NCBI GenBank assembly: GCA_017615795.1
Contig: JAFZZK010000020.1
Span: forward strand, 93,155 to 157,154
DNA: 64,000 nt
Source: Bacteroidales bacterium
GTDB lineage: Bacteria; Bacteroidota; Bacteroidia; Bacteroidales; WCHB1-69
Direction: 5' to 3'
Below, in pieces: positions 4,566 to 46,486 of this stretch. The translations under genes were made by a program, and so were the position numbers. The notes beneath the pieces were generated by a model. The model was given only the letters and a program-made list of their open reading frames with translations. It was not told the origin of the DNA and made no database searches. How positions within the stretch are numbered: the first letter of the stretch is position 1; the number at the start of each line of letters is the position of its first letter.

Positions 4566-4623
4566 CTATTTTGTCGTTAAACTAACTATTGCACCTTGAA
4601 TTTTGAGAATCCGTGACAACAGC

Positions 4624-6600: not shown

Positions 6601-6690
6601 GGAAAGTTGGCCGAGTGGCTTAAGGCAGCGGTTTCGAAAACCGCCGTAGTGTCACAGCTACCGGGGGTTCGAATCCCTCACTTTCCGCCA
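6601..6690 (+). tRNA. tRNA-Ser (anticodon CGA), class II with long variable arm, CCA encoded
   Basis: Acceptor GGAAAGT/ACTTTCC. Anticodon stem GCGGT/ACCGC with loop UUCGAAA. Variable arm stem GTAG/CTAC. T arm GGGGG-TTCGAAT-CCCTC. Ends in G-CCA. Confidence 0.9.
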
Positions 6691-34040: not shown

Positions 34041-34790
34041 ATGGTTCTCAAACCGCAAATAAAACTTATTGGCATTCTCGGAATTCTGTTCTGCCTTTGC
34101 CTCGGCACGGCAAATGCCCGGCAGGTTACGGTGAAACGCCACGTGCCGGAGTTCAACTCCATTTACAACAACTCGTTTCTGGACATCCGGTATGTGCAAG
34201 GGCCGCAATACAAGGTGGTGCTCGAGATGGACGAGGCCCTGGTTCCTCGTGTGGTGACTGTGGTGGAGAAAGGGGTGCTGAAAATCTACGTGAAAGGATC
34301 CGTCACCATCCGGCCCGCCGACAAGTACAGGATTGTGGTCTATTCCCCGTTCCTGGTGGAGGCCTGCAATGTGGGGGATGGCGTGATGGATCTGGGGGAT
34401 CTGTCAGGTTCCACTTTCTACGCCGACAATACCGGAAGAGGGAGCATCCTGCTCACCTTCACTCCCTATGAAGATCAGTACAGCTATGCCACGGTCAGAA
34501 TACGCAACAGATCGGCCGGCATCGTCTGGGCCGATTGTGAAGCCGGCAGCGTGGAGATCGAGAGCGAGGGTGACGGGTATGCGGAGGTGGCGGGCTCCGC
34601 CACGAACCTGAAGGTCAGCCTCACGGGCAACGGCGAGATCAATGCCGCCGACCTGGTGGCAGAGCGGGCCAATGTGAAGCTGGACGGCCCGGGCAGCATC
34701 TTTGTGAACGTCAGCGTCACCACCCGCGTCACCGCCGACGGCGGCGGGCTCGTGGAGATCTACGGGGATTCGGAGGTGATAGAGAATTGA
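34041..34790 (+). CDS. DUF2807-like (putative adhesin head GIN domain) secreted protein
   Basis: Signal peptide after Met12 (MVLKPQIKLIGILGILFCLCLGTANA). F..I......L.I.YVQG....V.....E.L......V..G.LKI followed by beta-strand repeats with G.G.I. Confidence 0.65.
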   Translation: MVLKPQIKLIGILGILFCLCLGTANARQVTVKRHVPEFNSIYNNSFLDIRYVQGPQYKVVLEMDEALVPRVVTVVEKGVLKIYVKGSVTIRPADKYRIVVYSPFLVEACNVGDGVMDLGDLSGSTFYADNTGRGSILLTFTPYEDQYSYATVRIRNRSAGIVWADCEAGSVEIESEGDGYAEVAGSATNLKVSLTGNGEINAADLVAERANVKLDGPGSIFVNVSVTTRVTADGGGLVEIYGDSEVIEN

Positions 34791-34909
34791 GCGGCAACGT
34801 GACCGTTCATACCCTATGTCCCACAGGGACAAAACCCGTAGAAACCATACGCAAGGAAAATCCATATAACTTATTATTCACCTTTTTTGTCGCTCTAATC
34901 AAAAAAAAC

Positions 34910-34917
34910 TACTTTTG
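34910..34917 (+). promoter_or_regulatory. -7 promoter box (TACTTTTG) at the left edge of the low-GC island
   Basis: Exact TAnnTTTG, about 50 nt upstream of leader-repeat copy A. Confidence 0.5.
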
Positions 34918-34966
34918 CATTTTCAAAAGAACTATGAAAGTCTAAAAAATATAAGTTACGGAGGAC

Positions 34967-34990
34967 GCCGAAAATCCGGAAAAGAGTAGG
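34967..34990 (+). repeat. Leader/cassette repeat copy A, core GCCGAAAATCCGGAAAAGAGTAGG
   Basis: Identical 24/24 to copy C. The ATG of ORF 35014 follows 23 nt later. Weaker similarity extends from about 34958 to 35013. Confidence 0.85.
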
Positions 34991-35013
34991 TGAAAAACTG
35001 TAAAAATTAGAAC

Positions 35014-35547
35014 ATGAGAAACTTTTTTAACAGAGCTACTGGTTTGGAAAAACTGATTCAAATCGTTAGAGAGTCTTGGAATCATCTTGCTGAAAATATT
35101 GCAAGTGGGAAAATATGTATTAATAATGAGGCAGACTTGGAACTCGAACTGGGTTACCTTTTGAAGAAAAAAGGACTGTATGTTGGTCGTCAACATCCCG
35201 CTAGCTTGAACAAAAGTACAAGTAAGACTGCATCTGGAAATGCTAAGGTTGATCTATATACAACACTTTCTGATAGACAAGGCAATTATACGGCAGCCAT
35301 TGAGATGAAATGGCCTCACGATCATATGCCTAAAGATTATAGAATTGAAATTCTTAATGACATTGAAAATCTTGAGGCCTATATTAAAGATGGTATTGCA
35401 GACGTTGGTTTCGCATTGGTATATACAAAAGAGAGAAGCTATCTGGATGACAATCATGAAGTGAAAATCAACAGCACTGGGCACCAAACCGATTGGCTCA
35501 CCTTTAACGACGAACAAGAATGTTTCCTGACCATTTTGGTAAACTAA
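35014..35547 (+). CDS. Stand-alone PD-(D/E)xK nuclease-fold protein, hypothetical
   Basis: 177 aa. Candidate motif E(ADLELE)...KVDLY...AAIEMKW (D..ExK). Homologous block by block to the N-terminus of ORF 36203. Confidence 0.6.
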   Translation: MRNFFNRATGLEKLIQIVRESWNHLAENIASGKICINNEADLELELGYLLKKKGLYVGRQHPASLNKSTSKTASGNAKVDLYTTLSDRQGNYTAAIEMKWPHDHMPKDYRIEILNDIENLEAYIKDGIADVGFALVYTKERSYLDDNHEVKINSTGHQTDWLTFNDEQECFLTILVN

Positions 35548-35594
35548 CAAACCTCAATCACATGAAAGAGAATCCGTCCGATGAGCATAGGAAA

Positions 35595-35619
35595 GCCCGA
35601 AAATCCAGAAAAGAGTAGC
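35595..35619 (+). repeat. Leader/cassette repeat copy B, GCCCGAAAATCCAGAAAAGAGTAGC
   Basis: Differs from copies A and C by a 1-nt insertion and 2 substitutions. The ATG of ORF 35634 follows 14 nt later. Confidence 0.8.
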
Positions 35620-35633
35620 TAAAAAACAATATT

Positions 35634-36038
35634 ATGGCATTAATAAAAAGATGGAAACGTCGCAAAAGTGTTGTTGAAATCGAATTTATGATTGGCGACA
35701 AAGTATGGTTTATCCCCAAAGGAGAAAAAGAGGCAATATCCGGAGAAGTCATTCGTATCCAAGCAGATGTCAAACGCTTCAACAAAAAAACGATAGGTGA
35801 CGTGAAATACACTATTGTAGATGATGTGTATGGTGAATGTTTCGACGTTTCTTACGACAACGTGTATTCTAAAAAGTATGAAGCAGAAGGTTTTTATAAA
35901 TTTGAGTGTCGGGTTTATTTCACAGCTAACGCTTATCAACGAGAAACAGTATTTGCCAAAAACCCCAAAGATGCTGAAGAGATGATAAAGCAGAGGTGTC
36001 CGAATGTGTATAATGTTGAATATGACTCCTATGAGTAG
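35634..36038 (+). CDS. Hypothetical protein
   Basis: 134 aa, AT-rich, preceded by repeat copy B. No motif recognised. Confidence 0.5.
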   Translation: MALIKRWKRRKSVVEIEFMIGDKVWFIPKGEKEAISGEVIRIQADVKRFNKKTIGDVKYTIVDDVYGECFDVSYDNVYSKKYEAEGFYKFECRVYFTANAYQRETVFAKNPKDAEEMIKQRCPNVYNVEYDSYE

Positions 36039-36202
36039 ATTGTGAAACTCTCCATCAACCTACCCTATCACAAGATCTTATAAGGCAAAACGTCTCATCC
36101 CCCTGCCAATGCGCTTTGGACAAGGTGTTTATAACTTTTTTTAGGTTATTCACTTAAATATACAACTAACCAAGGTATATAAGAAGGATAAAACTAAAAA
36201 AC

Positions 36203-37654
36203 ATGTTTCAAACAACCTTCACCCAACAAGTCTTAAACGACATTCATGAATTTCTGAACCAGAACACCAAAGTATTCACCAACAAGCGCGATTTTCAGAT
36301 GAACTTAGCAGTTTATCTGAAATGTGTGAGACATTATGACGTCGAAGTGGAATATCACGTGCCGTCGGACATTCTATCCACCCTTATTCCGCAAACCCTG
36401 CCGGAGAGATGCACCTACTACCCTTGGCTCCAGGCCAACAGCGACAGGCCTCAGGAGATGTACGTGGATATTGTAGTCAGCAACGGGGAGGAATACGTGC
36501 CCGTCGAACTGAAGTACAAGAAGAAAGAGCTGAAAGGCGATGTGGAGCTGTTCGGGCAGAACATGGGCAAGGGCGTCATCCTGAAAGGTGATGCGGCACA
36601 CGATTTCGGACGATATGGCTTTTGGAAGGATGTGCGCAGAACAGAGCTTCTGGTCAAGTCGTTCGAGAATGTCAAGAACGGCATCGTACTGTTTGTCACC
36701 AACGACGAATCCTACAAGACGGCTTCCATGACGGACACCAACAGCGAGCATCTCGCCATGGGTGAAGGCACCGACACGTATCACAAGGGCACGAACTGCT
36801 GCTGGCCGTTCAACCCGCTGATGACAGACACCTACAATTCCTGCCCGAGTTTCAAATTGGAGGACGAACATGATGTGAACTGGAACGGCTACACCTTCAG
36901 TGGGGTTGGTTTCCACTGTGCGGAAGTGATTGTGCATGGCGCCATGACATCTCAGGAGTCTCTTGACAAATATGGTGAGGCCACCATGCACACATTTCGC
37001 GTGAATATAGACACGTACGCCACATACGTAAGCTTTACCGACACGGTGGAAGATTATTATCAGAAAGGAAACGAGCACTATTCGTCAAAGAAAGAATACA
37101 TCCAATATGTCAAAGACTCTTTGGATAATGACGATGCGCTGGAAGAGATATTCGGTCTTGATGATGACAATGATCCTTGGTATGATGTGGACATCTACGG
37201 CGACTTTATTCTCCCCAAAGACATCCCCAACACCCCGTTTTCGCTGGAAGTCCTCGATGAAAATGAACAAGTGGTTTTTTCATCGAAGAATATCCTCGAC
37301 TTTAGCAAGGACTTGCATTTTGAGGAGGAGTTACGCCATTTCGACGGATTGCAGCTTGTCACGCAAGGCCTCACACGATGCTGGTATGAGTTCACCATTC
37401 AGGACACGGAATTCCGTCCCGAGAAGTTCCAGTTCAAAGCGGCAAAAGCGTATTGGAAGAAAAACGCCAACGAGTTCCCGATAGCCCTTTATGAGGCAAC
37501 ATACGATAACAAGCCTGTTGATTGTTCAGATATGACTGGCGACGACAAGGGTTATTTCTGCCGCGAACTGGTGGAGGCAGACCAAAACGGATGGAACATT
37601 CTCGCATCGGTCCAGTTCGACCAATGGGTCCGCGAAATGTTGTTGACGAAATAG
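36203..37654 (+). CDS. PD-(D/E)xK nuclease-fold N-terminal domain fused to a ~300-aa unknown C-terminal region
   Basis: 483 aa. KRDFQMNLAVYL, YVDIVVS and YVPVELKYKK (D..ExK), then GIVLFVTNDESY. These parallel the 177-aa ORF blocks EADLELELGYLL / KVDLYTT / AAIEMKW / GFALVYTKERSY. Confidence 0.65.
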   Translation: MFQTTFTQQVLNDIHEFLNQNTKVFTNKRDFQMNLAVYLKCVRHYDVEVEYHVPSDILSTLIPQTLPERCTYYPWLQANSDRPQEMYVDIVVSNGEEYVPVELKYKKKELKGDVELFGQNMGKGVILKGDAAHDFGRYGFWKDVRRTELLVKSFENVKNGIVLFVTNDESYKTASMTDTNSEHLAMGEGTDTYHKGTNCCWPFNPLMTDTYNSCPSFKLEDEHDVNWNGYTFSGVGFHCAEVIVHGAMTSQESLDKYGEATMHTFRVNIDTYATYVSFTDTVEDYYQKGNEHYSSKKEYIQYVKDSLDNDDALEEIFGLDDDNDPWYDVDIYGDFILPKDIPNTPFSLEVLDENEQVVFSSKNILDFSKDLHFEEELRHFDGLQLVTQGLTRCWYEFTIQDTEFRPEKFQFKAAKAYWKKNANEFPIALYEATYDNKPVDCSDMTGDDKGYFCRELVEADQNGWNILASVQFDQWVREMLLTK

Positions 37655-37689
37655 AGATTACTGTGCTATATCTCCATTAAAAAAATTTC

Positions 37690-37697
37690 TATATTTG
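37690..37697 (+). promoter_or_regulatory. -7 promoter box (TATATTTG) for ORF 37745
   Basis: Exact TAnnTTTG, 48 nt upstream of the ATG. Confidence 0.5.
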
Positions 37698-37744
37698 CAC
37701 CTTCAATAACATACAAACAATAACAACATATAAAGAACAAGATT

Positions 37745-38296
37745 ATGGGATGGTTTAACAGAAACAACAACGACGAGACATCTCGTTACAAGAAAGAAGC
37801 CTCTATCGGAAATCTTACCATTGGCATCCGTCCTGACAACAGTGTGGAACTGATACTTGACGGTAAGATATATAACGGCAATGTGATGCGATTTTTACGC
37901 GATGAGGTTGCCCCGGAGGTGGGACTCAGTGTGGATCCCCGTTGGAACACCCACCAGCTCGGGAGCAAACTTGTGGACTTCATCAATGAAGATGAAGGTG
38001 CTTCTTCAAGCAGTCGCAAAATTTTCAGAATCACATATCATTATTGGGCGATTCCGAAGGGACTCGTTGTGGAGGCGGATACGCTGGACGAGGCCATGAA
38101 AAAAGCACGCGACTTGATAAGAAGCGGCCATGACAGTTGGGAAGACACAGAAACGGAGGAGTGTTTTGACCATATGTCTATCGAGCAAGCTATTATAGAT
38201 GATAATAATGAGGACGACTATCCTGATTGGGACTACGTCGGGGACACCAGATCCGATATTGAATCGTGGAAAGGAGAGAAGTACGAGAAACTTTAA
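37745..38296 (+). CDS. Hypothetical protein with acidic C-terminal half
   Basis: 183 aa. No catalytic motif recognised. Confidence 0.5.
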   Translation: MGWFNRNNNDETSRYKKEASIGNLTIGIRPDNSVELILDGKIYNGNVMRFLRDEVAPEVGLSVDPRWNTHQLGSKLVDFINEDEGASSSSRKIFRITYHYWAIPKGLVVEADTLDEAMKKARDLIRSGHDSWEDTETEECFDHMSIEQAIIDDNNEDDYPDWDYVGDTRSDIESWKGEKYEKL

Positions 38297-38341
38297 TAAA
38301 CATAGAGTCATAATTTTAGTAAAAATCTTAAATTGAATAGT

Positions 38342-38902
38342 ATGGGAATTAACGATCGCTTTAGAAGAAAATCCAACAACAACATTACCAACTGCCCAAC
38401 GTCTGTGGCAACAATTGAGTTAGGAGGAAAATATACCTTTTGCTTGCACGAAATCGATGTCTTGGACAAAGACATTGATATATCTGACAAATTGGACAAT
38501 AGTAGAAAATTAAATGAATACGGGGATGGTCCCTTTTGTATTTTTCGTATAAATAATCATCTAAAAGACAAGGGATTATATTGTTATATCGTTAATGGGG
38601 AACTAAAATACATCGGCGAAACTTGCAAAACTTATGAAGATCGAATAAACAATGGATATGGTCGTATTTACGCTCGTAATTGCTATAAAACAGAAATAAT
38701 TGGAGGAGAGAAACATTCGGGAGGACAATCAACCAATTGCCGAATCAATTCTCTTGTTAATGAAGAACTTCACAATGGAAATGATATTCTGATTGGTTTT
38801 TATGTGATGAATGACAGCAATGATGGCGAAATTAAGTCATTAGAAAGTTTTTTGATTGACAAATACGATCTTGACCGCTTTGGATGGAATAAGAAGCGAT
38901 AA
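38342..38902 (+). CDS. GIY-YIG nuclease-domain protein
   Basis: GLYCYIVNGELKYIGET (GIY-x8-YIG), Arg 9 residues after YIG (YEDR), a later Glu (KSLESFLI) and Asn (GWNKK). Start moved from TTG to the first ATG (MGINDRF). Confidence 0.65.
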   Translation: MGINDRFRRKSNNNITNCPTSVATIELGGKYTFCLHEIDVLDKDIDISDKLDNSRKLNEYGDGPFCIFRINNHLKDKGLYCYIVNGELKYIGETCKTYEDRINNGYGRIYARNCYKTEIIGGEKHSGGQSTNCRINSLVNEELHNGNDILIGFYVMNDSNDGEIKSLESFLIDKYDLDRFGWNKKR

Positions 38903-38947
38903 ACTACACCTTCTATGAACATTAGATAATTATTAAAAGACATTAAC

Positions 38948-39613
38948 ATGGCAGAATTAAGAATTGATGGCCGTATGACTGTTGCGGCATTTGTTGAACA
39001 ATTTGAGAACAAATTTGCAGCTGTACTGAAAGTTTATAAAGACAATAAGGGGCATCTGGCTGAAGACAATGCACGTCTTGCTAATGTTCAGGTGTTGAGA
39101 GCCCCGACAGTAGGCGTTTTCTCTTTCCGTTCTGACATTTCGGTAGGCAGTTTTTGCGATCGACTATATGAGGAGTATGGTCTCGTAGTGAAAGTGTTCC
39201 AGCGTAGTGGGAATGGATCTATGCTTGATAAAATGGCCCTTTCAGATTTGGAAAAGGTTCCTTACAAAGCGAGCAAAAAGGAAATGGAACAATATGCACG
39301 CTATATGGCTAAAGAGATTCAAGATCTGGATTTGAAAAGCGCCGCTGATGAATTGTATGAAAAAGGTAAGAAGGTTAGAAATTCCAACGACAGAAAAGAC
39401 CTTGAAGACCTTGAAGACATAGTGACTCTCTTAGATGAACTTGAGGAAAGTAAACATCGTGGAGGTCTTGATAAGGTCGCCTCTGTTTGTAAAAAATATC
39501 CGATACCTGAGATAGGAGGCATCATATCTTCAATCGTTTCCGGAAATTTTTTGGCTCTTGGAGTGGAAACACTACGGACTTTGATTAAACTGACCGAATT
39601 ATTCAATCAATAA
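38948..39613 (+). CDS. Hypothetical protein (duplicated ~45-aa N-terminal module, coiled-coil middle, hydrophobic tail)
   Basis: 221 aa. TVAAFVEQFENKFAAVLKVY... and SVGSFCDRLYEEYGLVVKVF... look like an internal repeat. Confidence 0.5.
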   Translation: MAELRIDGRMTVAAFVEQFENKFAAVLKVYKDNKGHLAEDNARLANVQVLRAPTVGVFSFRSDISVGSFCDRLYEEYGLVVKVFQRSGNGSMLDKMALSDLEKVPYKASKKEMEQYARYMAKEIQDLDLKSAADELYEKGKKVRNSNDRKDLEDLEDIVTLLDELEESKHRGGLDKVASVCKKYPIPEIGGIISSIVSGNFLALGVETLRTLIKLTELFNQ

Positions 39614-39658
39614 GTCGATAATCATAATAGATTAAGATAACCTTACAATTTAACTGTT

Positions 39659-41173
39659 ATGCACGCATTATCCAAATCCCGCTATACCGCCTTCCGCCAA
39701 TGCCCCAAAAACCTTTGGCTGAAGATATACAAACCGGAAGAGGCCGTAGAAGACCCTTCGTTGCAGGCCCGGCTCGACCAGGGCAACGAGGTGGGCGACC
39801 TCGCCATGCAGTACTTCGGCGACTATGAGGAGGTGACCACCTATTCCCACGGAAGATTAGACCTTTCCGCCATGGTCAAGAAAACCCAACAATATATGCG
39901 GAGCTCCGTGGAAAACATTTGCGAGGCCTCCTTCGAATACAAAGGCAACTATTGCGCTGTCGATATCCTGCACAAGGAGGGTCGCGGCTGGGCCATCTAC
40001 GAGGTGAAAAGCACCACGGCATCTCCCGGGAGGATTGACCGGAGCAAAATCGCACCATACCTCCCCGACATCGCCTACCAGACTTGGGTGCTGGAGCAAT
40101 GCGGGGTCAAGGTAACGGGGTCTTACCTGCTGTGTCTCAACAAGGAGTATCGCCGTGGCAGAGAGCTGAACATTCAGGATATGTTTGTGGCATTAGACCT
40201 CTCCAAAGAGATCGACCACGAGTACCGGCTCATTGACGACACCGTGAGACGGGCGCAGAAGATCATCAACAGCGACGTTGAGCCCGAAATCGACCTTTCG
40301 GAAGACTGCTACAAACCTTATCCGTGCGCCTTCTTCGAATATTGCAAGCGGCAACACGGGATTTCGAAGCCCTCCGTGTTCGATACATACCGTATGTCCG
40401 GGAAGGACAAGATTGAACATTACCAACAAGGGCACACCTCTTTTGAAGATCTGCGCAACGAAAAGTTGACCCCAAACCAACGCAGGCAAGTGGAAAACAC
40501 GCTGAACAACACGATCGAGATAAACAAGGACGGAATCCGCAGGTTTTTGTCCCAGCTCTCCTTGCCGCTCTATTTTCTGGATTTTGAGACGATGCAGAGT
40601 GCGGTGGCGGAATTTGAGGGTGTCAAGCCTTATCAGCAGATTCCGTTCCAATATTCGCTGCATATTGCCAAACGGCCGGGCAAGTATGACCACTTGGGGT
40701 ATCTGGCGGAAAGCGACGGCACCGACCCGCGTCGGGGGGTGGCCGAACAGCTCTGTGACGACATTCCCGCCAATGTGTGCGTGCTCGCATACAATATGCC
40801 GTTCGAGAAAAATTGTCTCAAAGATTTGGCGTACGCCTTCCCGGACTTGTCGCGCCACCTCATGCGCATCCACGACAACATGGTGGATTTGCTCGTGCCT
40901 TTCCGCGAAGGGTACTATTACGTCCCCGCCATGGGCGGCTCGTTCAGCATCAAGAGCGTGTTGCCCGCCCTTTTCCCCAACGACCCCAAACTGGATTACC
41001 ATAACTTGAAGGACGTTCACAACGGCAGCGAGGCCATGGACATCTTCCCGAAAATCAGGACTATGTCGCGCCGCGAAGCCGAGCGCACCCGCGAGAACCT
41101 TCTCCGCTACTGCGAGCTTGACACCTTGGCGATGGTGAAGATCTGGGAGAATTTGATAGAGGTGGCGCAGTAA
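39659..41173 (+). CDS. DUF2779-family protein: Cas4/RecB-like PD-(D/E)xK nuclease with 4-Cys cluster plus C-terminal exonuclease-like domain
   Basis: 504 aa. N-terminal FRQCP, nuclease motif AVDIL...WAIYEVKS, Cys triad CYKPYPCAFFEYC, then LYFLDFET...IPFQYSLH, which is typical of DUF2779 as recalled. Host-like GC (57% in a sampled line). Confidence 0.7.
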   Translation: MHALSKSRYTAFRQCPKNLWLKIYKPEEAVEDPSLQARLDQGNEVGDLAMQYFGDYEEVTTYSHGRLDLSAMVKKTQQYMRSSVENICEASFEYKGNYCAVDILHKEGRGWAIYEVKSTTASPGRIDRSKIAPYLPDIAYQTWVLEQCGVKVTGSYLLCLNKEYRRGRELNIQDMFVALDLSKEIDHEYRLIDDTVRRAQKIINSDVEPEIDLSEDCYKPYPCAFFEYCKRQHGISKPSVFDTYRMSGKDKIEHYQQGHTSFEDLRNEKLTPNQRRQVENTLNNTIEINKDGIRRFLSQLSLPLYFLDFETMQSAVAEFEGVKPYQQIPFQYSLHIAKRPGKYDHLGYLAESDGTDPRRGVAEQLCDDIPANVCVLAYNMPFEKNCLKDLAYAFPDLSRHLMRIHDNMVDLLVPFREGYYYVPAMGGSFSIKSVLPALFPNDPKLDYHNLKDVHNGSEAMDIFPKIRTMSRREAERTRENLLRYCELDTLAMVKIWENLIEVAQ

Positions 41174-41215
41174 AGAAATATTGAGAAACATATTTGGAAT
41201 ATTTTAAAGGAGTAA

Positions 41216-41239
41216 GCCGAAAATCCGGAAAAGAGTAGG
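41216..41239 (+). repeat. Leader/cassette repeat copy C, core GCCGAAAATCCGGAAAAGAGTAGG
   Basis: Identical to copy A. The ATG of ORF 41261 follows 21 nt later. Confidence 0.85.
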
Positions 41240-41260
41240 CGAAATAAAATGTAAAAAAAT

Positions 41261-41890
41261 ATGCATATAGAATATGACTTAGAGAGTGTTGGTAAATTCA
41301 ACTATTTGAAGTTTGAAAAACGTGTGTTTTATATCCCAAATACTCGATACGATATATATATCGAAGGACATATATTAAAAATAGATCTAGGGGATAATTA
41401 TAAGTATGTCATAGCAAATGGCTTAAAATGCTATCAGTTCCTATGGTATAATGCTCAAGACGACACCATTACAACCAATATTGAAGCCGACACTGTAGAC
41501 GGAACACCGACTAACGAATGGTTCTGTTGTACATTCCCCTATGATGCCAAGGAATTTCCTTTGAACGAGCAGCATCCAAGGATTGTGGTTCCTAAAAGAG
41601 ATTATATCGAATTGTTAAATTCATTTTTAGCAGAAAAAACAACCCTTGACGATTCCCTCAAGCAACTTCTTATAGAACACCCAGATTTTTTTAATGCCTA
41701 TTGGCCTATTGAGAAACGGGATATGAATAAGATTGATTGGGTGAAAATAGATGGTGAGCTCAAAGCCGCGCGTGAAAATCCAGAGTGCAGACCATTGTTA
41801 TTGGATAATGATGAGACAATCCCCGAGGAATATAGAAGATTTCCTTCGTGGTTACATAATTTTTTTGTAAAAACGTTAGGCGAGGAATGA
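41261..41890 (+). CDS. Hypothetical protein
   Basis: 209 aa, AT-rich, preceded by repeat copy C. No motif recognised. Confidence 0.5.
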   Translation: MHIEYDLESVGKFNYLKFEKRVFYIPNTRYDIYIEGHILKIDLGDNYKYVIANGLKCYQFLWYNAQDDTITTNIEADTVDGTPTNEWFCCTFPYDAKEFPLNEQHPRIVVPKRDYIELLNSFLAEKTTLDDSLKQLLIEHPDFFNAYWPIEKRDMNKIDWVKIDGELKAARENPECRPLLLDNDETIPEEYRRFPSWLHNFFVKTLGEE

Positions 41891-42309
41891 TTATGTAATC
41901 CGTTTCTTTGATTTTTGCCAAAATGATTACCTACAAATAAACAACTAGGTAAAATAACAAGTATGTATGCATAGAAGAGGTAATATTATTTATTTTGAAG
42001 ATAATCAGGAATTCATTTTTTTTGGCTTTGATATCCAAGTTGATTTTCAAACAATCAACTAAAACACCATATATAGCACCCTTTTCTTCACTGAAGTTTT
42101 GATTTTTTTCGCAAGCTTCACCTATATGGAGCCTCTTATCTTACTTAAAATCTTTTTAATAAAAGAAAAGTCATTGCATGAATATTTATCTCATAAAACT
42201 ATTTTAGAGACCAAGTCATTGCACATTTTTTTAAGAAACGTGTAACAATCTTCGTTTCGAGATTAAAGAAAGAAAAGCATTAGGGGCGAATTTATGTCAA
42301 TGAGCGTGC

Positions 42310-43284
42310 TTATTTTGTGGGCAACGGTAAATTTGCACCATCGGCATTGAGCAAAATAATCCGCAAAAGTTCCATATAATACCTTTCCTCGTCAAATGGG
42401 AAAAAACCACTTTTGAATGGTTCGACATACTTCTTATACTCTAGGGTGGATTTAGACAATCTGTATTTGGCCGCGTGGAAGGCGTCAATCCAATGGATAT
42501 TTTCCAATGTACTAACATTTTCATTTTCATACTTCCACAGATAGTAGCCGAAACCGTAGTGGGCGACACCGCAGCTGAATTGTTTTTGATGTACATTGAA
42601 TTTCGCGCGATCTAATAAACTATCATATTGTTTATCTTTATTGGCCAACGCTTCCACAAATTTAAGCATGCCATACTCCGTTAGCGGCTCTTCCACAAAG
42701 GGAACCGATATGTCTTTTTTATTTAAATCGTCATAGAAAGCGTGAAACATTTCGTGGATTAGAGTGATAACTAGCTGATCTCTATTTATCGAGAATCTTA
42801 AGTCCGTTAGACCCATCCGTGTTTCCATCAACAATACGATTTCTGGCCTGTGACTTTTACCATCGCGGATATAATAACCTGGTAATTCAATTTCCTCAAC
42901 TATGGGTAATTTGTCATCCGGAGATGAGTTAGGATGACTCTTTTTATAATCATCTCTTTTCCACTTCAATATTGTAATCAGATCATCCAGCAATCTACGT
43001 TTGTCCTCTTCCTCACTAGTTTTGTCCATCTCTCTGTTCAACCAGTCAAATTCCTTCTCCAGTTTGGCAATTCTGTTGTTCAAGTCTTTCCATTTAATCT
43101 CATAGCTTTCCGGCCTGCTCTTATATAAATCCAGATAGATAGGGACTTTTTTGTTGATGTCAGACATTTTGAAAAACAGTCCGTCTGGCGTCTTGAACTC
43201 AAAGTCGGAAATATCATCCAAAAGCTTCTGAATATCCTGATCAAGAGGTTCTGTATAATCCCTGTTAAGAAGTGTAATACTCAT
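42310..43284 (-). CDS. Putative HExxH zinc metalloprotease with coiled-coil N-terminal region
   Basis: 324 aa. LIHEMFHAFYDD (HExxH) with a downstream acidic EEPLTEYG as a candidate third ligand. Confidence 0.55.
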   Translation of the reverse strand: MSITLLNRDYTEPLDQDIQKLLDDISDFEFKTPDGLFFKMSDINKKVPIYLDLYKSRPESYEIKWKDLNNRIAKLEKEFDWLNREMDKTSEEEDKRRLLDDLITILKWKRDDYKKSHPNSSPDDKLPIVEEIELPGYYIRDGKSHRPEIVLLMETRMGLTDLRFSINRDQLVITLIHEMFHAFYDDLNKKDISVPFVEEPLTEYGMLKFVEALANKDKQYDSLLDRAKFNVHQKQFSCGVAHYGFGYYLWKYENENVSTLENIHWIDAFHAAKYRLSKSTLEYKKYVEPFKSGFFPFDEERYYMELLRIILLNADGANLPLPTK

Positions 43285-43346
43285 ACGTTTATTATTTTAT
43301 ACCCGTTCATTGAAAACAATCATATTATTCTTATGACCGCAAAAAC

Positions 43347-43497
43347 ACGAATAAGTATTTGTGTTTTCGTCTTGCAAAAATACATTTTTTTTCTAATCTT
43401 GGAACTGTTTTAACGGAAAAGCATCCCCCCGAAATTCTTCTGCAAATCGCGGGTGCAACTCTTCGACAACCGCGTGGGCAACGCCCAATAGGAGACG
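43347..43497. repeat. Duplicated promoter/operator module, copy X (upstream of the HExxH gene)
   Basis: Alignable end to end with 45079..45227. Contains direct half-sites CGCGGGTGCAAC (43448..43459) and CGCGTGGGCAAC (43471..43482). Confidence 0.8.
43375..43382 (-). promoter_or_regulatory. -7 promoter box (TATTTTTG on minus strand) for the HExxH gene
   Basis: Plus-strand CAAAAATA inside module X. Confidence 0.55.
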
Positions 43498-43516
43498 CGC
43501 CATGGCACGTCTCTAC
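43489..43516. repeat. Palindromic element, TAGGAGACG-N10-CGTCTCTAC
   Basis: Arms at 43489..43497 and 43508..43516, spacer CGCCATGGCA. Same architecture as the three copies at 45947, 46150 and 46283. Confidence 0.75.
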
Positions 43517-43610
43517 ACGCCACCATCTTCTTCCTGCTGCCGTTCTTCGTGTCGGGGGTGGCGGTTGTGGTGGGAAAAATATGAGAATGTTTGTAAGTTT
43601 GCTACAATTT

Positions 43611-44498
43611 CTACAGTTCATGTTGCGCTAGAGAAAGACTCACCTTATTCCCACTTCGCGTCGGAAATACCAGCGTGGAATGTTCCTCTATAAGCAGACG
43701 TAATTGTCTCTCACTCACTATAGTCAGATCCACGTCATTCGCCAACATCATTTCAGATATCGCTGGATAGTCAGTAAGCAACCGCATCCGTTCGGTCATT
43801 GTTTGATCTGATATAATAGGAGACAGGGCAAATAGTTCCAGATTAGAGGCTGTCTCCTCAATCAGATGACTTTTCACAAAGTTTTTTTGTTTTTCATCCC
43901 CTATAAGCTCGCCAATTCCCTGCATCAAGACTTTTGGACTTGTCTTCCTTATACTTTCTGCGCACTGTGAGGCATAGCCTGCAACACCCATTCCCGTGCG
44001 CAGTCGGACAATATTCGGGTTGATGGCCGTACCCTTCTGAAGGAAAAACCACACATCGAAAATGTCACGAGGAGTGATACGTTCCCCCAAGGCACAAAGC
44101 TTATGGGCAAACATATCAGGAAGAGTCATTACCCGCACATCCGTGCCCGCCAGAGTCTTGATTTCGTAATGGTTGTCATAATGCCGTGAGGAGACCTCAA
44201 CTTTCAGCATACGGTTACCCCCACCATAATTGAGGACCAGCAAAGGACCATAAAACTTCATTGCCTCGTCATCAATCTTCCCAAAACTCAACAGCAGGTT
44301 GTGCAACGCACGGAATACACTCTCTGCTTTCGTGTCATCCAGCAAGTTGAAATCCAGATCTGTTGAAAACCTGGGCAACTGATGAAACAACATTAACGAG
44401 GTTCCACCTTTAAAGGCAAGTTGTACAGACAGCTCTTTGTCGCGGAAAATGGCAAGCAAGACTTGCATCATAAAATAACGGTGTTTTGCAATATCCAT
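43611..44498 (-). CDS. abiEii: AbiEii/AbiGii-family nucleotidyltransferase toxin (type IV TA)
   Basis: 295 aa. LAFKGGTSL and RFSTDLDF motifs. Lies 4 nt downstream of the AbiEi-like gene. Confidence 0.85.
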   Translation of the reverse strand: MDIAKHRYFMMQVLLAIFRDKELSVQLAFKGGTSLMLFHQLPRFSTDLDFNLLDDTKAESVFRALHNLLLSFGKIDDEAMKFYGPLLVLNYGGGNRMLKVEVSSRHYDNHYEIKTLAGTDVRVMTLPDMFAHKLCALGERITPRDIFDVWFFLQKGTAINPNIVRLRTGMGVAGYASQCAESIRKTSPKVLMQGIGELIGDEKQKNFVKSHLIEETASNLELFALSPIISDQTMTERMRLLTDYPAISEMMLANDVDLTIVSERQLRLLIEEHSTLVFPTRSGNKVSLSLAQHEL

Positions 44499-44502
44499 AA
44501 TG

Positions 44503-45075
44503 TCAGATGCTTAGAATTTTTTTTACATTTTGCTCCAATGCTTTAGATTGATATGTCGGGATTAGATTCTTGACCTTCTTTTTGTTAAGAGGCCGCAGGT
44601 TGTCAAAATAACAATTCCCTGCGCTTAAATATACCATATCCAAAAACGCCCGTTCCGCAGAGGCAATACAAATATTATCCTTTTGCACAATTCCTTCTCC
44701 ACCCAACCATAATTCGGGCTTTATTTGTCGGAAAGAATACTTTTGTGCGCCAACTTCCACCGTTCGGGAAAGATAGCTCACAGAGGTCAGTGCAGAGTCA
44801 TATTGGAAAATCACCCCTGCCTGCCCCAGAACATACTCCAGTGAGAGATAAGACGGATGGAAAATGGAACAAGCCAACTCTTCCGCATTGAAAATGCGTT
44901 TCGTGTAAATTCCGCGTCTTGGATTAAGGATTTCTCCTTTCTTGACATAATAGTTCAGCATTTTCGTCAATCTCACACCATCAGCAATACCTGTCATCAT
45001 AACCAAAGACTGGATGGTAAAGACGGTCCTTGTGGATTCCCATATTAATTTCAGCACATTATTTTGAGAACTCAT
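44503..45075 (-). CDS. abiEi: AbiEi-family antitoxin / transcriptional regulator (type IV TA)
   Basis: 190 aa from MSSQNNVLKLIW. Its size and position directly upstream of AbiEii fit the family. The ORF-track 283-aa version runs through the promoter and repeat, so it was trimmed. Confidence 0.75.
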   Translation of the reverse strand: MSSQNNVLKLIWESTRTVFTIQSLVMMTGIADGVRLTKMLNYYVKKGEILNPRRGIYTKRIFNAEELACSIFHPSYLSLEYVLGQAGVIFQYDSALTSVSYLSRTVEVGAQKYSFRQIKPELWLGGEGIVQKDNICIASAERAFLDMVYLSAGNCYFDNLRPLNKKKVKNLIPTYQSKALEQNVKKILSI

Positions 45076-45078
45076 AAT

Positions 45079-45227
45079 ACGAATAATTTGTATTTTCAGT
45101 TTGCAAAAATACAAATTTTCCAATATCTGAATTGATTTAAAAACAGAAAAAAACGTCGAAATTCTTCTGGACCAAATCGCGGGTGCAACTTTTCGACAAG
45201 CGCGTGGGCAACGCATTATAGGAGACG
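45079..45227. repeat. Duplicated promoter/operator module, copy Y (upstream of abiEi, in the divergent region with the ECF sigma gene)
   Basis: Half-sites CGCGGGTGCAAC (45178..45189) and CGCGTGGGCAAC (45201..45212), the same 23-bp period as copy X. Confidence 0.8.
45104..45111 (-). promoter_or_regulatory. -7 promoter box (TATTTTTG on minus strand) for abiEi-abiEii
   Basis: Plus-strand CAAAAATA, 29 nt upstream of the ATG. Confidence 0.55.
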
Positions 45228-45252
45228 TAACGATTTTTTTGTCACATTTTTG

Positions 45253-45260
45253 TATTTTTG
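45253..45260 (+). promoter_or_regulatory. -7 promoter box (TATTTTTG) for the ECF sigma gene
   Basis: Exact TAnnTTTG, 54 nt upstream of the ATG. Confidence 0.5.
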
Positions 45261-45313
45261 CGTCACCTATTTTGTAGGGCCGTATCGCATACGCCCGCTG
45301 GCAATATACCAAA

Positions 45314-46486
45314 ATGGATAAGGCGAAATTCTGGGAACGGAAATACCGACGCAATCTCGGCAGGATTGTCGGAATCTGCTACCGCTACGTCAACGACCGG
45401 GCGGTGGCAGAGGACCTGGCGCAGGACGTTTTCGTGAAGGCTATGGAGAAGTTCACGACCATCCGCGCCATCGGACGCTTTGACGCCTGGCTGACCCATA
45501 TCGCCGTGAACCATTGCATCGACCACCTGCGCCGACAACCGGATTTCGTGCCGATAGAACTTGAGAGCATAGCCGAAACCTCCACGAAAGAAGAAATGGT
45601 GTGGACAGCGGATTTTACGGAGGAGGAATTGCTGGAGGCTATCGGGCAACTACCTGAGATTCAGCGTACCGTGTTCAACCTCCACGCTATGGAGCGATAC
45701 TCGCACCGGCGCATCGCGGGAATGTTGGGCATCTCGGCGGACAACGCCCGGCAACTGCACCACCGCGCCCGCGAGCGGCTGTGCCAAATGCTCGCCGACC
45801 GACACAAAGAGAAGGAAAAACGCAAAAAAGGACTATTGTTTATGATCATTTTGTTTGCTTCGTTGAAACGCGCCCACGCAAACCCACGCCGCATCGACCG
45901 CCTCTACCGTTCGCGGTTGTCGGGATATAGGATGGAACCTGCCAATGTAGAGTCGCACCCCGGCACGTCTCTACAGGCGCATCTGCGGGACACAGATGCC
46001 CACCATATCTCCACCAGCCTCGCCACGCAAAAAAACGCCATCCTCCTCATTACGGCGGCGGGTGTCGCAGGCGTCACGGGCGGCGCCATCGGGTTTCAGA
46101 TTGGGAGGAACACGACACCGGTATCGGGTTCGGGGAACGGTCCCGTTGTGGTAGAGACGCAATGCATTGCGTCTCTACCAGACACGACAGACGGCCATCA
46201 CGTTATCGGAACCAATAATCATTCATCCCTATGGACCAAAACCGTTCCTACACGCACCGGAAATGTGAAAATTCCCGTGGAGGTAGAGACGTTTCATGAA
46301 ACGTCTCTACAGGAGACATCCTTACCTAAAACATCCCCACACCCCCAAAACGTCACGGCCTCCGTCCCCGTTCCCGACACCACCCCCATCATCATCACCA
46401 CAAGAATTCCCGTCCGCCAAACCGTTGTGATTCGGGACACCACCTCCATCTCCGACACCGTTTTTCTAATAAAGAATGAAGAATGA
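45314..46486 (+). CDS. ECF-type sigma-70 factor fused to a ~215-aa membrane-spanning low-complexity C-terminal extension
   Basis: Region 2 (DLAQDVFVKAMEKF...FDAWLTHIAVNHCIDHLRR) and region 4 (LPEIQRTVFNLHAMERYSHRRIAGMLGISADNARQLHHRARERL) occupy about the first 170 aa. TM segments GLLFMIILFASL and AILLITAAGVAGVTGGAIGF follow. The stop overlaps the next start (ATGA). Confidence 0.7.
   Translation: MDKAKFWERKYRRNLGRIVGICYRYVNDRAVAEDLAQDVFVKAMEKFTTIRAIGRFDAWLTHIAVNHCIDHLRRQPDFVPIELESIAETSTKEEMVWTADFTEEELLEAIGQLPEIQRTVFNLHAMERYSHRRIAGMLGISADNARQLHHRARERLCQMLADRHKEKEKRKKGLLFMIILFASLKRAHANPRRIDRLYRSRLSGYRMEPANVESHPGTSLQAHLRDTDAHHISTSLATQKNAILLITAAGVAGVTGGAIGFQIGRNTTPVSGSGNGPVVVETQCIASLPDTTDGHHVIGTNNHSSLWTKTVPTRTGNVKIPVEVETFHETSLQETSLPKTSPHPQNVTASVPVPDTTPIIITTRIPVRQTVVIRDTTSISDTVFLIKNEE
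45947..45974. repeat. Palindromic element, GTAGAGTCG-N10-CGTCTCTAC, inside the sigma-extension ORF
   Basis: 8 of 9 arm positions are complementary. Spacer CACCCCGGCA. Confidence 0.75.
46150..46179. repeat. Perfect 30-nt palindrome GGTAGAGACGCAATG|CATTGCGTCTCTACC inside the sigma-extension ORF
   Basis: Read directly from the sequence. Core arms GTAGAGACG / CGTCTCTAC with a self-complementary 10-nt spacer. Confidence 0.9.
46283..46310. repeat. Perfect 28-nt palindrome GTAGAGACGTTTCA|TGAAACGTCTCTAC inside the sigma-extension ORF
   Basis: Read directly from the sequence. In the same reading frame as the two previous copies (offsets of 204 and 132 nt). Confidence 0.9.

Follow-up and report, generated by a model that had tools for sequence, protein, structure and literature searches.

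DUF805b RNA in a Bacteroidales genomic island

The 64,000-nucleotide (nt) stretch of Bacteroidales DNA analyzed here (contig JAFZZK010000020.1, positions 93,155 to 157,154; hereafter, the window) carries three direct copies of a short element, termed A, B and C, each lying directly upstream of an open reading frame (ORF). Our data show that this element is a structured RNA whose two covarying helices form on the sense strand, and copies A and C are members of DUF805b RNA by every feature that could be tested. DUF805b is a catalogued family, and the three repeats in the window are therefore an already known kind of element. The reading that we favor, with modest confidence, is that DUF805b acts as a portable cis-acting messenger RNA (mRNA) leader at the translation initiation of the adjacent ORF.

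The core of the element, GCCGAAAATCCGGAAAAGAGTAGG, is repeated exactly (24/24) at 34967-34990 and 41216-41239, both on the + strand, as a preliminary description of this DNA had reported. The same description recognized a third copy on the + strand, which is real, and ascribed its divergence to one inserted C and two substitutions; three substitutions at 35596-35619 (CCCGAAAATCCAGAAAAGAGTAGC) account for it, and no indel is necessary. The 24-mer had 0 matches in 100 dinucleotide shuffles, and R1, a covariance model that we built from gathered family sequences, found only these three copies in the 64 kb window when run with filters off. The gaps from the end of the 24-mer to the ATG had been given correctly, at 23 nt (ATG 35014), 21 nt (41261) and 14 nt (35634). 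When measured from the 3' edge of the second helix, P2, the distances are 22 nt for copy A, 20 nt for copy C and 13 nt for copy B, and every copy lies on the same strand as its gene. The three loci resemble one another only in the motif of ~35 nt and in the A-rich spacer that runs up to the ATG. Searches of Pfam, PADLOC, NCBIfam and PHROGs returned no family match for the three motif-led proteins, among which no mutual similarity was seen; the limited extent of the repeat and the unrelatedness of the products had thus both been rightly described.

A scan of the window against Rfam 15 identified RF02914, "DUF805b RNA", a cis-regulatory family with a gathering score of 35.6 bits. It belongs to clan CL00115, which groups DUF805b with the DUF805 motif. 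Copies A and C exceed the gathering score, which contradicts the initial impression that the motif was undescribed, and copy B falls under it. In the RF02914 consensus, AAGGcGGAAgCCGAAAAgCCUuAAaAGAGUAGGcA, the 4-base-pair (bp) stem AGGc/gCCU includes bases upstream of the 24-mer. The corresponding P1 hairpin, (A)GGN/N'CC(U) around a 12-nt loop with CCGAAAA, is present with 4 bp in copy A and with 3 bp in copies C and B; the tail AAnAGAGUAGG, with three to four P2 pairs, is present in copies A and C and absent from copy B. Copies A and C share with the family its 35-nt model, hairpin, tail and same-strand site upstream of a protein-coding gene, and show no essential difference from it, whereas copy B differs by its lost P2 and its sub-cutoff score. 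The nested structure line of RF02914 shows P1 only, and P2 is backed by the covariation described below. The family, a candidate cis-regulatory RNA discovered through comparative genomics, reportedly stems from Weinberg et al. 2017 (NAR 45:10811), whose main text makes no mention of it.

The features concerned are the following, with proteins in amino acids (aa):

34910..34917, + strand: -7 promoter box TACTTTTG of the Bacteroidota type, from a TAnnTTTG scan; context, outside the motif
34958..34992, + strand: DUF805b copy A; RF02914 44.3 bits, E 2.5e-10; R1 50.0 bits
C34959-G34978, G34960-C34977, G34961-C34976, A34962-U34975: P1 of copy A, 4 bp, read off the sequence against the family structure
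G34967.U34991, C34968-G34990, C34969-G34989, possibly C34966-G34992: P2 of copy A, 3-4 bp
34992..35013, + strand: spacer and initiation region of copy A, A-rich and G-poor, 22 nt
35014..35547, + strand: ORF of 177 aa led by copy A, without family assignment
35589..35619, + strand: degenerate DUF805b copy B; RF02914 18.4 bits, E 0.15; R1 34.6 bits, through sequence conservation
G35590-C35606, G35591-C35605, A35592-U35604: P1 of copy B, 3 bp (GGA/UCC)
35634..36038, + strand: 134-aa ORF behind copy B, called with a later start (116 aa) in one related contig
36203..41173, + strand: five further genes without the motif (483, 183, 189, 221 and 504 aa), the last encoding a DUF2779/Cas4-like nuclease (39659-41173)
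41207..41241, + strand: DUF805b copy C, 33 nt after the DUF2779 stop codon; RF02914 45.1 bits, E 1.3e-10; R1 51.6 bits
G41209-C41226, G41210-C41225, A41211-U41224: P1 of copy C, 3 bp (GGA/UCC)
G41216-C41240, C41217-G41239, C41218-G41238: P2 of copy C, 3 bp
41241..41260, + strand: spacer and initiation region of copy C, A-rich, 20 nt from P2 to ATG
41261..41890, + strand: ORF of 209 aa led by copy C, without family assignment; strain-variable segment, together with copy C

In copy B the 3' tail reads GUAGC, not GUAGG, and P2 is therefore lost, with at best the pairs G35595-C35619 and C35596-G35618 left. Its spacer of 13-14 nt is outside the family norm, and the copy is unchanged in all strain contigs. 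Judging from its sequence, copy B is best called a decayed copy with an apparently broken pseudoknot, a degenerate relative of DUF805b. What the window gains is a correct annotation: two genuine DUF805b leaders and a decayed third copy, within an accessory island of low GC. The 24/24 identity between copies A and C is a matter of sequence constraint across the family rather than of recombination.

Copies B and C lie 40 nt and 33 nt past the upstream stop codon, respectively, and the copies delimit a 0.63 kb unit with one gene and a 5.6 kb unit with six genes, as first claimed. TAnnTTTG boxes number 44 in the window, compared to 29.7 expected. The one at 34910..34917 is likely the promoter of the copy A transcript; copies B and C have none in the 100 nt upstream, in agreement with the original remark that only copy A has such a box upstream. 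No terminator formed by a stem and a T-run adjoins any of the three copies, and we rejected a terminator or attenuator for this reason.

A covarying pseudoknot on the sense strand

To gather the family, we searched IMG/VR viral contigs and genome contigs with the exact degenerate pattern CCGAAAANCCNNAANAGAGTAG, which matched 95 IMG/VR contigs and at least 120 genome contigs. R1 recovered further, more diverged copies within the same loci. The gathered set comprised 165 unique instances, and an alignment of 150 sequences was used for the shuffle test. In this family, P1 is a 4-bp hairpin, (A)GGN ... N'CC(U), with the 12-nt loop GGAA-NCC-GAAAA, and in P2 the loop NCC is paired with the GGN' that ends the near-invariant 3' tail AAnAGAGUAGGN'. 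P2 crosses P1, and the element is therefore a pseudoknot.

Across the 165 unique instances, pair 5-18 of P1 is A-U in 70, C-G in 46, G-C in 17 and U-A in 8, with a mutual information of 1.07 bits, and pair 10-34, formed in P2 by the bases that directly precede CCGAAAA and directly follow GAGUAGG, is G-C in 73, U-A in 30, A-U in 20 and C-G in 15, with a mutual information of 1.01 bits; P2 extends to the invariant C11-G33 and C12-G32. In the 150-sequence alignment 91% of cells were paired compared to 74% in shuffles, and the covariation score was 0.39 compared to 0.094 in shuffles (reached by 0/500), slid registers giving no more than 0.08. The signal is not a selection artefact, because in the covarying pairs the search pattern held at most one partner constant. 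In the diverged R1 copies, compensatory changes were also seen at otherwise invariant pairs: GUC/GAC (L097), GCU/AGC (L132) and AAGC/GCUU (L182). At the covarying positions, G.U and A.C pairs occur 13 versus 1 and 10 versus 2 times. Since G.U is frequent and A.C rare, the fold forms on the mRNA-sense strand.

These results run against the preliminary description, which saw no conserved hairpin and favored other readings over a structured RNA: P1 and P2 covary over 150-165 instances, and the CCG/CGG pairing that had been examined was the wrong one and involves positions left unpaired in the family. We rejected that hairpin because model positions 21-22 are variable in the family. A promoter or other site acting at the DNA level was likewise rejected, given the covariation, the G.U/A.C asymmetry and the lack of a fixed distance to TAnnTTTG. 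The GAAAA and AGAGUA stretches are near-invariant and unpaired. Nested-only folding, which is uninformative for a pseudoknot, gave z-scores of 0.45, -0.05 and 1.09, and such values near 0 suggest that a partner may help folding.

Start-codon spacing and the initiation region

Distances were measured between the 3' edge of P2 and the first ATG starting an ORF of 35 codons or more. The median is 22 nt with an interquartile range of 20-24, 81 of the 156 instances falling at 20-24 nt, and the distance is equal for genome and viral instances. The preliminary description had allowed for a duplication restricted to this locus; with relatives searched for the core and the distance to the start codon tabulated, the element was found phylum-wide at this median spacing, and a single-locus duplication was rejected. 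The translation or processing leader that it had offered as an alternative fits the tight distance. A TAnnTTTG box lies within 120 nt upstream in only 25/165 instances, at no preferred distance.

The spacer is composed of 52% A, 31% T, 11% C and 6% G, and A peaks at positions -12 (99/126), -13 (87/126) and -3 (82/126). In Flavobacterium johnsoniae, A at -12, -13 and -3 promotes initiation, as determined by ribosome profiling and reporters (PMC6847099). According to three papers, ribosomes of the Bacteroidia do not recognize Shine-Dalgarno (SD) sequences, since their anti-SD is kept sequestered at the 30S platform (PMC7797042, PMC9976891, PMC13000457). We rejected the element itself as a Shine-Dalgarno sequence, its GGAGG-like stretch (model positions 3-7) being ~50 nt upstream, where an SD would lie 5-10 nt before the start codon, and the spacer so poor in G. 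The middle base of this stretch, which covaries with position 18, is variable (A 73, C 46, G 34, T 12). When complementarity to the 16S 3' tail was assessed visually, with the F. johnsoniae 3' end deduced from an oligonucleotide (PMC13000453) as reference, no convincing register appeared at a functional distance. PMC7038950 contained nothing on pseudoknots selected for S1 by systematic evolution of ligands by exponential enrichment. At the descriptive level, the explicit pseudoknot covariation, the 22-nt spacing and its coupling to A-12/A-13/A-3 may be new.

The position of copies B and C, 40 and 33 nt after an upstream stop codon with no consensus promoter box or terminator between, raises the alternative of an RNA processing or stability element, in which the pseudoknot marks or blocks a ribonuclease, sets the 5' end of a monocistronic message and protects it from decay. 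The arrays with one copy per small gene (L097, L132, L174, L190) would fit such a role. We nevertheless regard it as improbable: it is the start codon that the distance is tied to, rather than the transcript start or the stop codon upstream, and a pseudoknot of 4+3 bp is a weak barrier. Furthermore, only 13/109 instances have a same-strand ORF of at least 100 codons ending within 200 nt upstream, and most copies are therefore not intercistronic.

A putative leader for translation initiation

We favor a cis-acting initiation leader because the motif is constrained relative to the start codon rather than to the upstream gene or the transcript start, because the element is transcribed, folded, sense-specific and fused to a good SD-less initiation region, and because the led genes share only the need for expression. 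The element of ~35 nt would be transcribed within the mRNA leader of the following gene and would fold ~22 nt before the start codon, directly 5' of an unstructured A-rich initiation region of the sort that serves Bacteroidia instead of a Shine-Dalgarno sequence. Its likely route of action would be contact with the small ribosomal subunit, or with a ribosome-associated factor, at the mRNA exit or platform side. Motif and spacer together (~57 nt) would form a portable, host-independent expression leader, which could be used at the 5' end of a transcript, as for copy A, or inside a polycistronic mRNA, as for copy C.

A comparable arrangement is described in PMC7708055 for standby-mediated translation of tisB in E. 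coli, where a pseudoknot that this translation requires likewise lies upstream of the initiation region; such a structure would aid 30S access by non-SD means. The tisB case concerns a single gene with a distant standby site, whereas DUF805b is phylum-wide, conserved in sequence and placed at a fixed short distance, with a ribosome contact that is presumed.

Several points weigh against the leader reading. Some instances, put at about a fifth, depart from the 20-24 nt spacing, for example in phage contigs (105-119 nt) and Pedobacter arrays (46-47 nt), and five of the eight + strand genes in the island have no copy. The spacers alone are already good initiation regions, and the need for an enhancer is not obvious. 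The near-invariant unpaired nucleotides in so small a pseudoknot also resemble a ligand-binding aptamer. Finally, no functional study of, or experiment on, DUF805 or DUF805b was found in the searchable literature.

A more specific proposal, which we advance only tentatively, is that DUF805b represents a phylum-wide, SD-independent ribosome-docking pseudoknot, a bacterial counterpart of a minimal internal ribosome entry site, that would attach to the 30S platform, or to a protein associated with the ribosome, and set the start codon 22 nt downstream in the P site. If docking proved true, mobile islands, bacteriocin loci and phages could express their genes efficiently in any Bacteroidota host, sites internal to polycistronic mRNAs included, and the retention of this spacing in a few genes of Gammaproteobacteria whose spacers include an SD would speak for a broadly conserved partner. 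If the leader acts on ribosome loading, it would be a useful expression part for Bacteroides and Flavobacteria, and would hint at how the phylum and its phages boost initiation without an SD. The family now has a concrete, testable shape, namely a covarying pseudoknot, a spacing of ~22 nt and an A-rich initiation region.

The compact H-type pseudoknot with its near-invariant unpaired GAAAA and AGAGUA could also be a conditional switch, which binds a small ligand (riboswitch-like, built as preQ1-I or SAM-II) or a conserved RNA-binding protein. Binding would stabilize the fold and raise or lower initiation 22 nt downstream, and the motif would mark a regulon, not a constitutive leader. The predicted stability is marginal, as in small aptamers that need their ligand to fold, and the fixed spacing to the start codon equally suits a translational operator. 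Some pairings of motif and gene recur across genera, with proteorhodopsin (L120, L123, L189) and with DUF805 and TM2-domain proteins. On the other hand, the downstream genes show no functional coherence (the 125 proteins match 45 Pfam families), the G-poor, unstructured spacer offers no alternative pairing or terminator as an expression platform, and no known riboswitch family matches at E up to 10. A permissive Rfam scan of 34700-41500 at that threshold returned DUF805b and chance eukaryotic or small-RNA matches only, with no riboswitch class. The preQ1-I and SAM-II/SAM-V aptamers are alike in architecture only, that is, in their length of ~35 nt, short P1, A-rich 3' tail pairing with the loop, conserved unpaired nucleotides and location near the start codon. 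Unlike them, DUF805b has the 5-nt GAAAA between its helices, sits 22 nt upstream without overlapping the ribosome-binding region and precedes functionally unrelated genes. We therefore judge a switch, the main rival of the leader reading, rather unlikely.

Strain variation around copy C

Fifteen near-identical metagenome contigs were recovered through exact protein matches to ORFs 35014 and 41261. Copy A, copy B and the genes that follow them remain constant among these strain contigs, and ORF 35014 is kept along with copy A in seven metagenome contigs. L216 and L217 swap copy C, its ORF and the genes beyond for other genes. In these two contigs homology reaches as far as the stop codon of the DUF2779 gene and ends there, 33 nt short of the motif, and the incoming segment has no motif, which points to an accessory-gene replacement hotspot with the DUF2779 stop codon as its left junction. 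The incoming genes encode a 281-aa protein, an 84-aa protein and an AAA_14 ATPase (L216:14160-16534, L217:7543-9917); in their place the window has motif C, two ORFs of 209 aa and 324 aa, and AbiE (41174 onwards). Elsewhere, in L223:1877-2287 and L224:2066-2287, the gene after copy A is called shorter (136 or 73 aa, compared to 177 aa), and this ORF may be disrupted in some strains.

The preliminary description had considered a recombination or cassette site, with exchange of genes between conserved copies. This idea has something to rest on: the low-GC island holds three direct copies ahead of unrelated genes, the segment with copy C is strain-variable, and three Logan unitigs begin inside copy C. 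These unitig starts, however, reveal no more than a branching of assembly graphs at a sequence that recurs in the community. In the 15 strain contigs the breakpoint is not in the motif, lying 33 nt upstream of it, the alternative segment carries no copy, and no recombinase family was found with Pfam among the island ORFs scanned. The covariation includes G.U and not A.C, as expected for selection on a folded mRNA-sense single strand rather than on duplex DNA, and throughout the phylum the same motif occurs singly before genes, keeping a fixed distance to the ATG. Nor does the 24/24 identity require recent exchange, since it is due largely to the 18 positions that are fixed by the search pattern and in upper case in the Rfam consensus. 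We consequently find it very hard to credit a DNA-level repeat, whether a recombination or a protein-binding site, that delimits exchangeable gene cassettes.

The closing pair of P2 differs between the two copies, being G.U in copy A and G-C in copy C. Chance or recent local duplication was rejected as an origin of the repeats, with 0 shuffle matches, differing flanks and a core found throughout the phylum. The likeness to an integron attC site, also a short repeat between unrelated genes that folds single-stranded, is superficial. DUF805b is a 35-nt pseudoknot 5' of the gene at a fixed ATG distance, whereas attC is an imperfect palindrome of 60-140 nt at the 3' cassette boundary; moreover, no integrase gene was found beside the DUF805b copies and the strain breakpoints are outside the motif. 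With no recombinase family in the scanned island ORFs and a junction 33 nt upstream of the motif, we rejected an attC site or cassette.

Distribution of DUF805b and the genes it precedes

Among the genome matches listed, all orders of Bacteroidota are represented, and single cases outside the phylum, again among the matches listed, come from Chloroherpeton, Dyella, Glaciecola, Rheinheimera and two metagenome-assembled genomes labelled Firmicutes. Two to four copies within 8 kb, each leading one of the successive genes, were seen at about 18 of the 99 genome loci. Such clustering is common in the family, and the architecture of the window, one leader per gene before unrelated ORFs, is therefore typical, as well as accurately described at the outset.

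The 125 downstream proteins match 45 Pfam families, none of which dominates; the most frequent are cargo of the type IX secretion system (T9SS) (6), TM2 (5), HTH_3 (5), rhodopsin (3) and DUF805 (3). Further downstream genes encode outer-membrane barrels, HU, phage repressor-like HTH proteins and nuclease-like island proteins, and by inspection double-glycine bacteriocin-like precursors are numerous. Short-peptide ORFs led by the motif were seen in L098, L105, L169, L111, L157, L175, L206, L190, L181 and L183. One group of these peptides shares a conserved KNAPTGSYAAGC, and others, with double-glycine leaders, resemble precursors of bacteriocins or of ribosomally synthesized and post-translationally modified peptides. 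An enrichment of such precursors among the motif-led ORFs is possible.

In Pedobacter, arrays of four DUF805b copies occur at a spacing of ~450 nt (L097:4487-7090, - strand; L116:3112-3579; L132:4504-5897). Some of these copies have an extra conserved element, AAAGTTTTTnnnnCTTTTTGATTTATAAAAG, between the motif and the ATG, giving a distance of 46-47 nt, and precede paralogous Cys-containing proteins of ~82 aa (MARxWY...CAIYA). In L003, L006, L013 and ~40 other IMG/VR contigs of 55-108 kb, all of them large phage contigs, a conserved hairpin, CTAACAnTCTCGTTGTTAG, comes after the DUF805b copy (e.g. L013:5956-6258), and the next ORF, of 47-51 aa, begins only 105-119 nt downstream, an exception to the 22-nt rule. 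When the ~100-kb phage copies were compared to an annotated phage collection, the sole match was the unannotated record MT835601.

A tandem second copy, a shorter variant, directly follows the first at L191:1320-1400 and in L207 (- strand, 4568-4602 and adjacent), e.g. GCGGATGCCGAAAAGCTGACGAGTAGGC; in this variant P1 is AGC/GCU and the 3' loop is 3 nt shorter. Gammaproteobacteria hold bona fide copies in Dyella (L161:1223-1275), Rheinheimera (L195:1797-1855) and Glaciecola (L136). Two of the gammaproteobacterial copies keep the pseudoknot and have an SD-like G-run in the spacer (GGGGG, GGGAGA), which suggests that the element was transferred horizontally and that its initiation region then adapted.

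The island and its neighborhood

The island has a GC content of 0.36-0.47, compared to ~0.53. Between 34900 and 45400 it contains eight genes on the + strand, seven of which have no match in Pfam, PADLOC, NCBIfam or PHROGs, the eighth being the DUF2779/Cas4-like nuclease. Two transfer RNA genes of the window, tRNA-Pro(GGG) at 2233-2308 and tRNA-Ser(CGA) at 6601-6690, are far from the island and have no obvious link to it. In the related contig L216, a neighboring gene encodes a T9SS sorting domain; this domain, the surplus of TAnnTTTG boxes and the absence of a Shine-Dalgarno sequence from the leaders are compatible with a Bacteroidota host. An AbiEii/AbiEi-like pair follows the + strand genes on the - strand at 43611-45354, and the island at 34900-45400 may be an uncharacterized defense operon.

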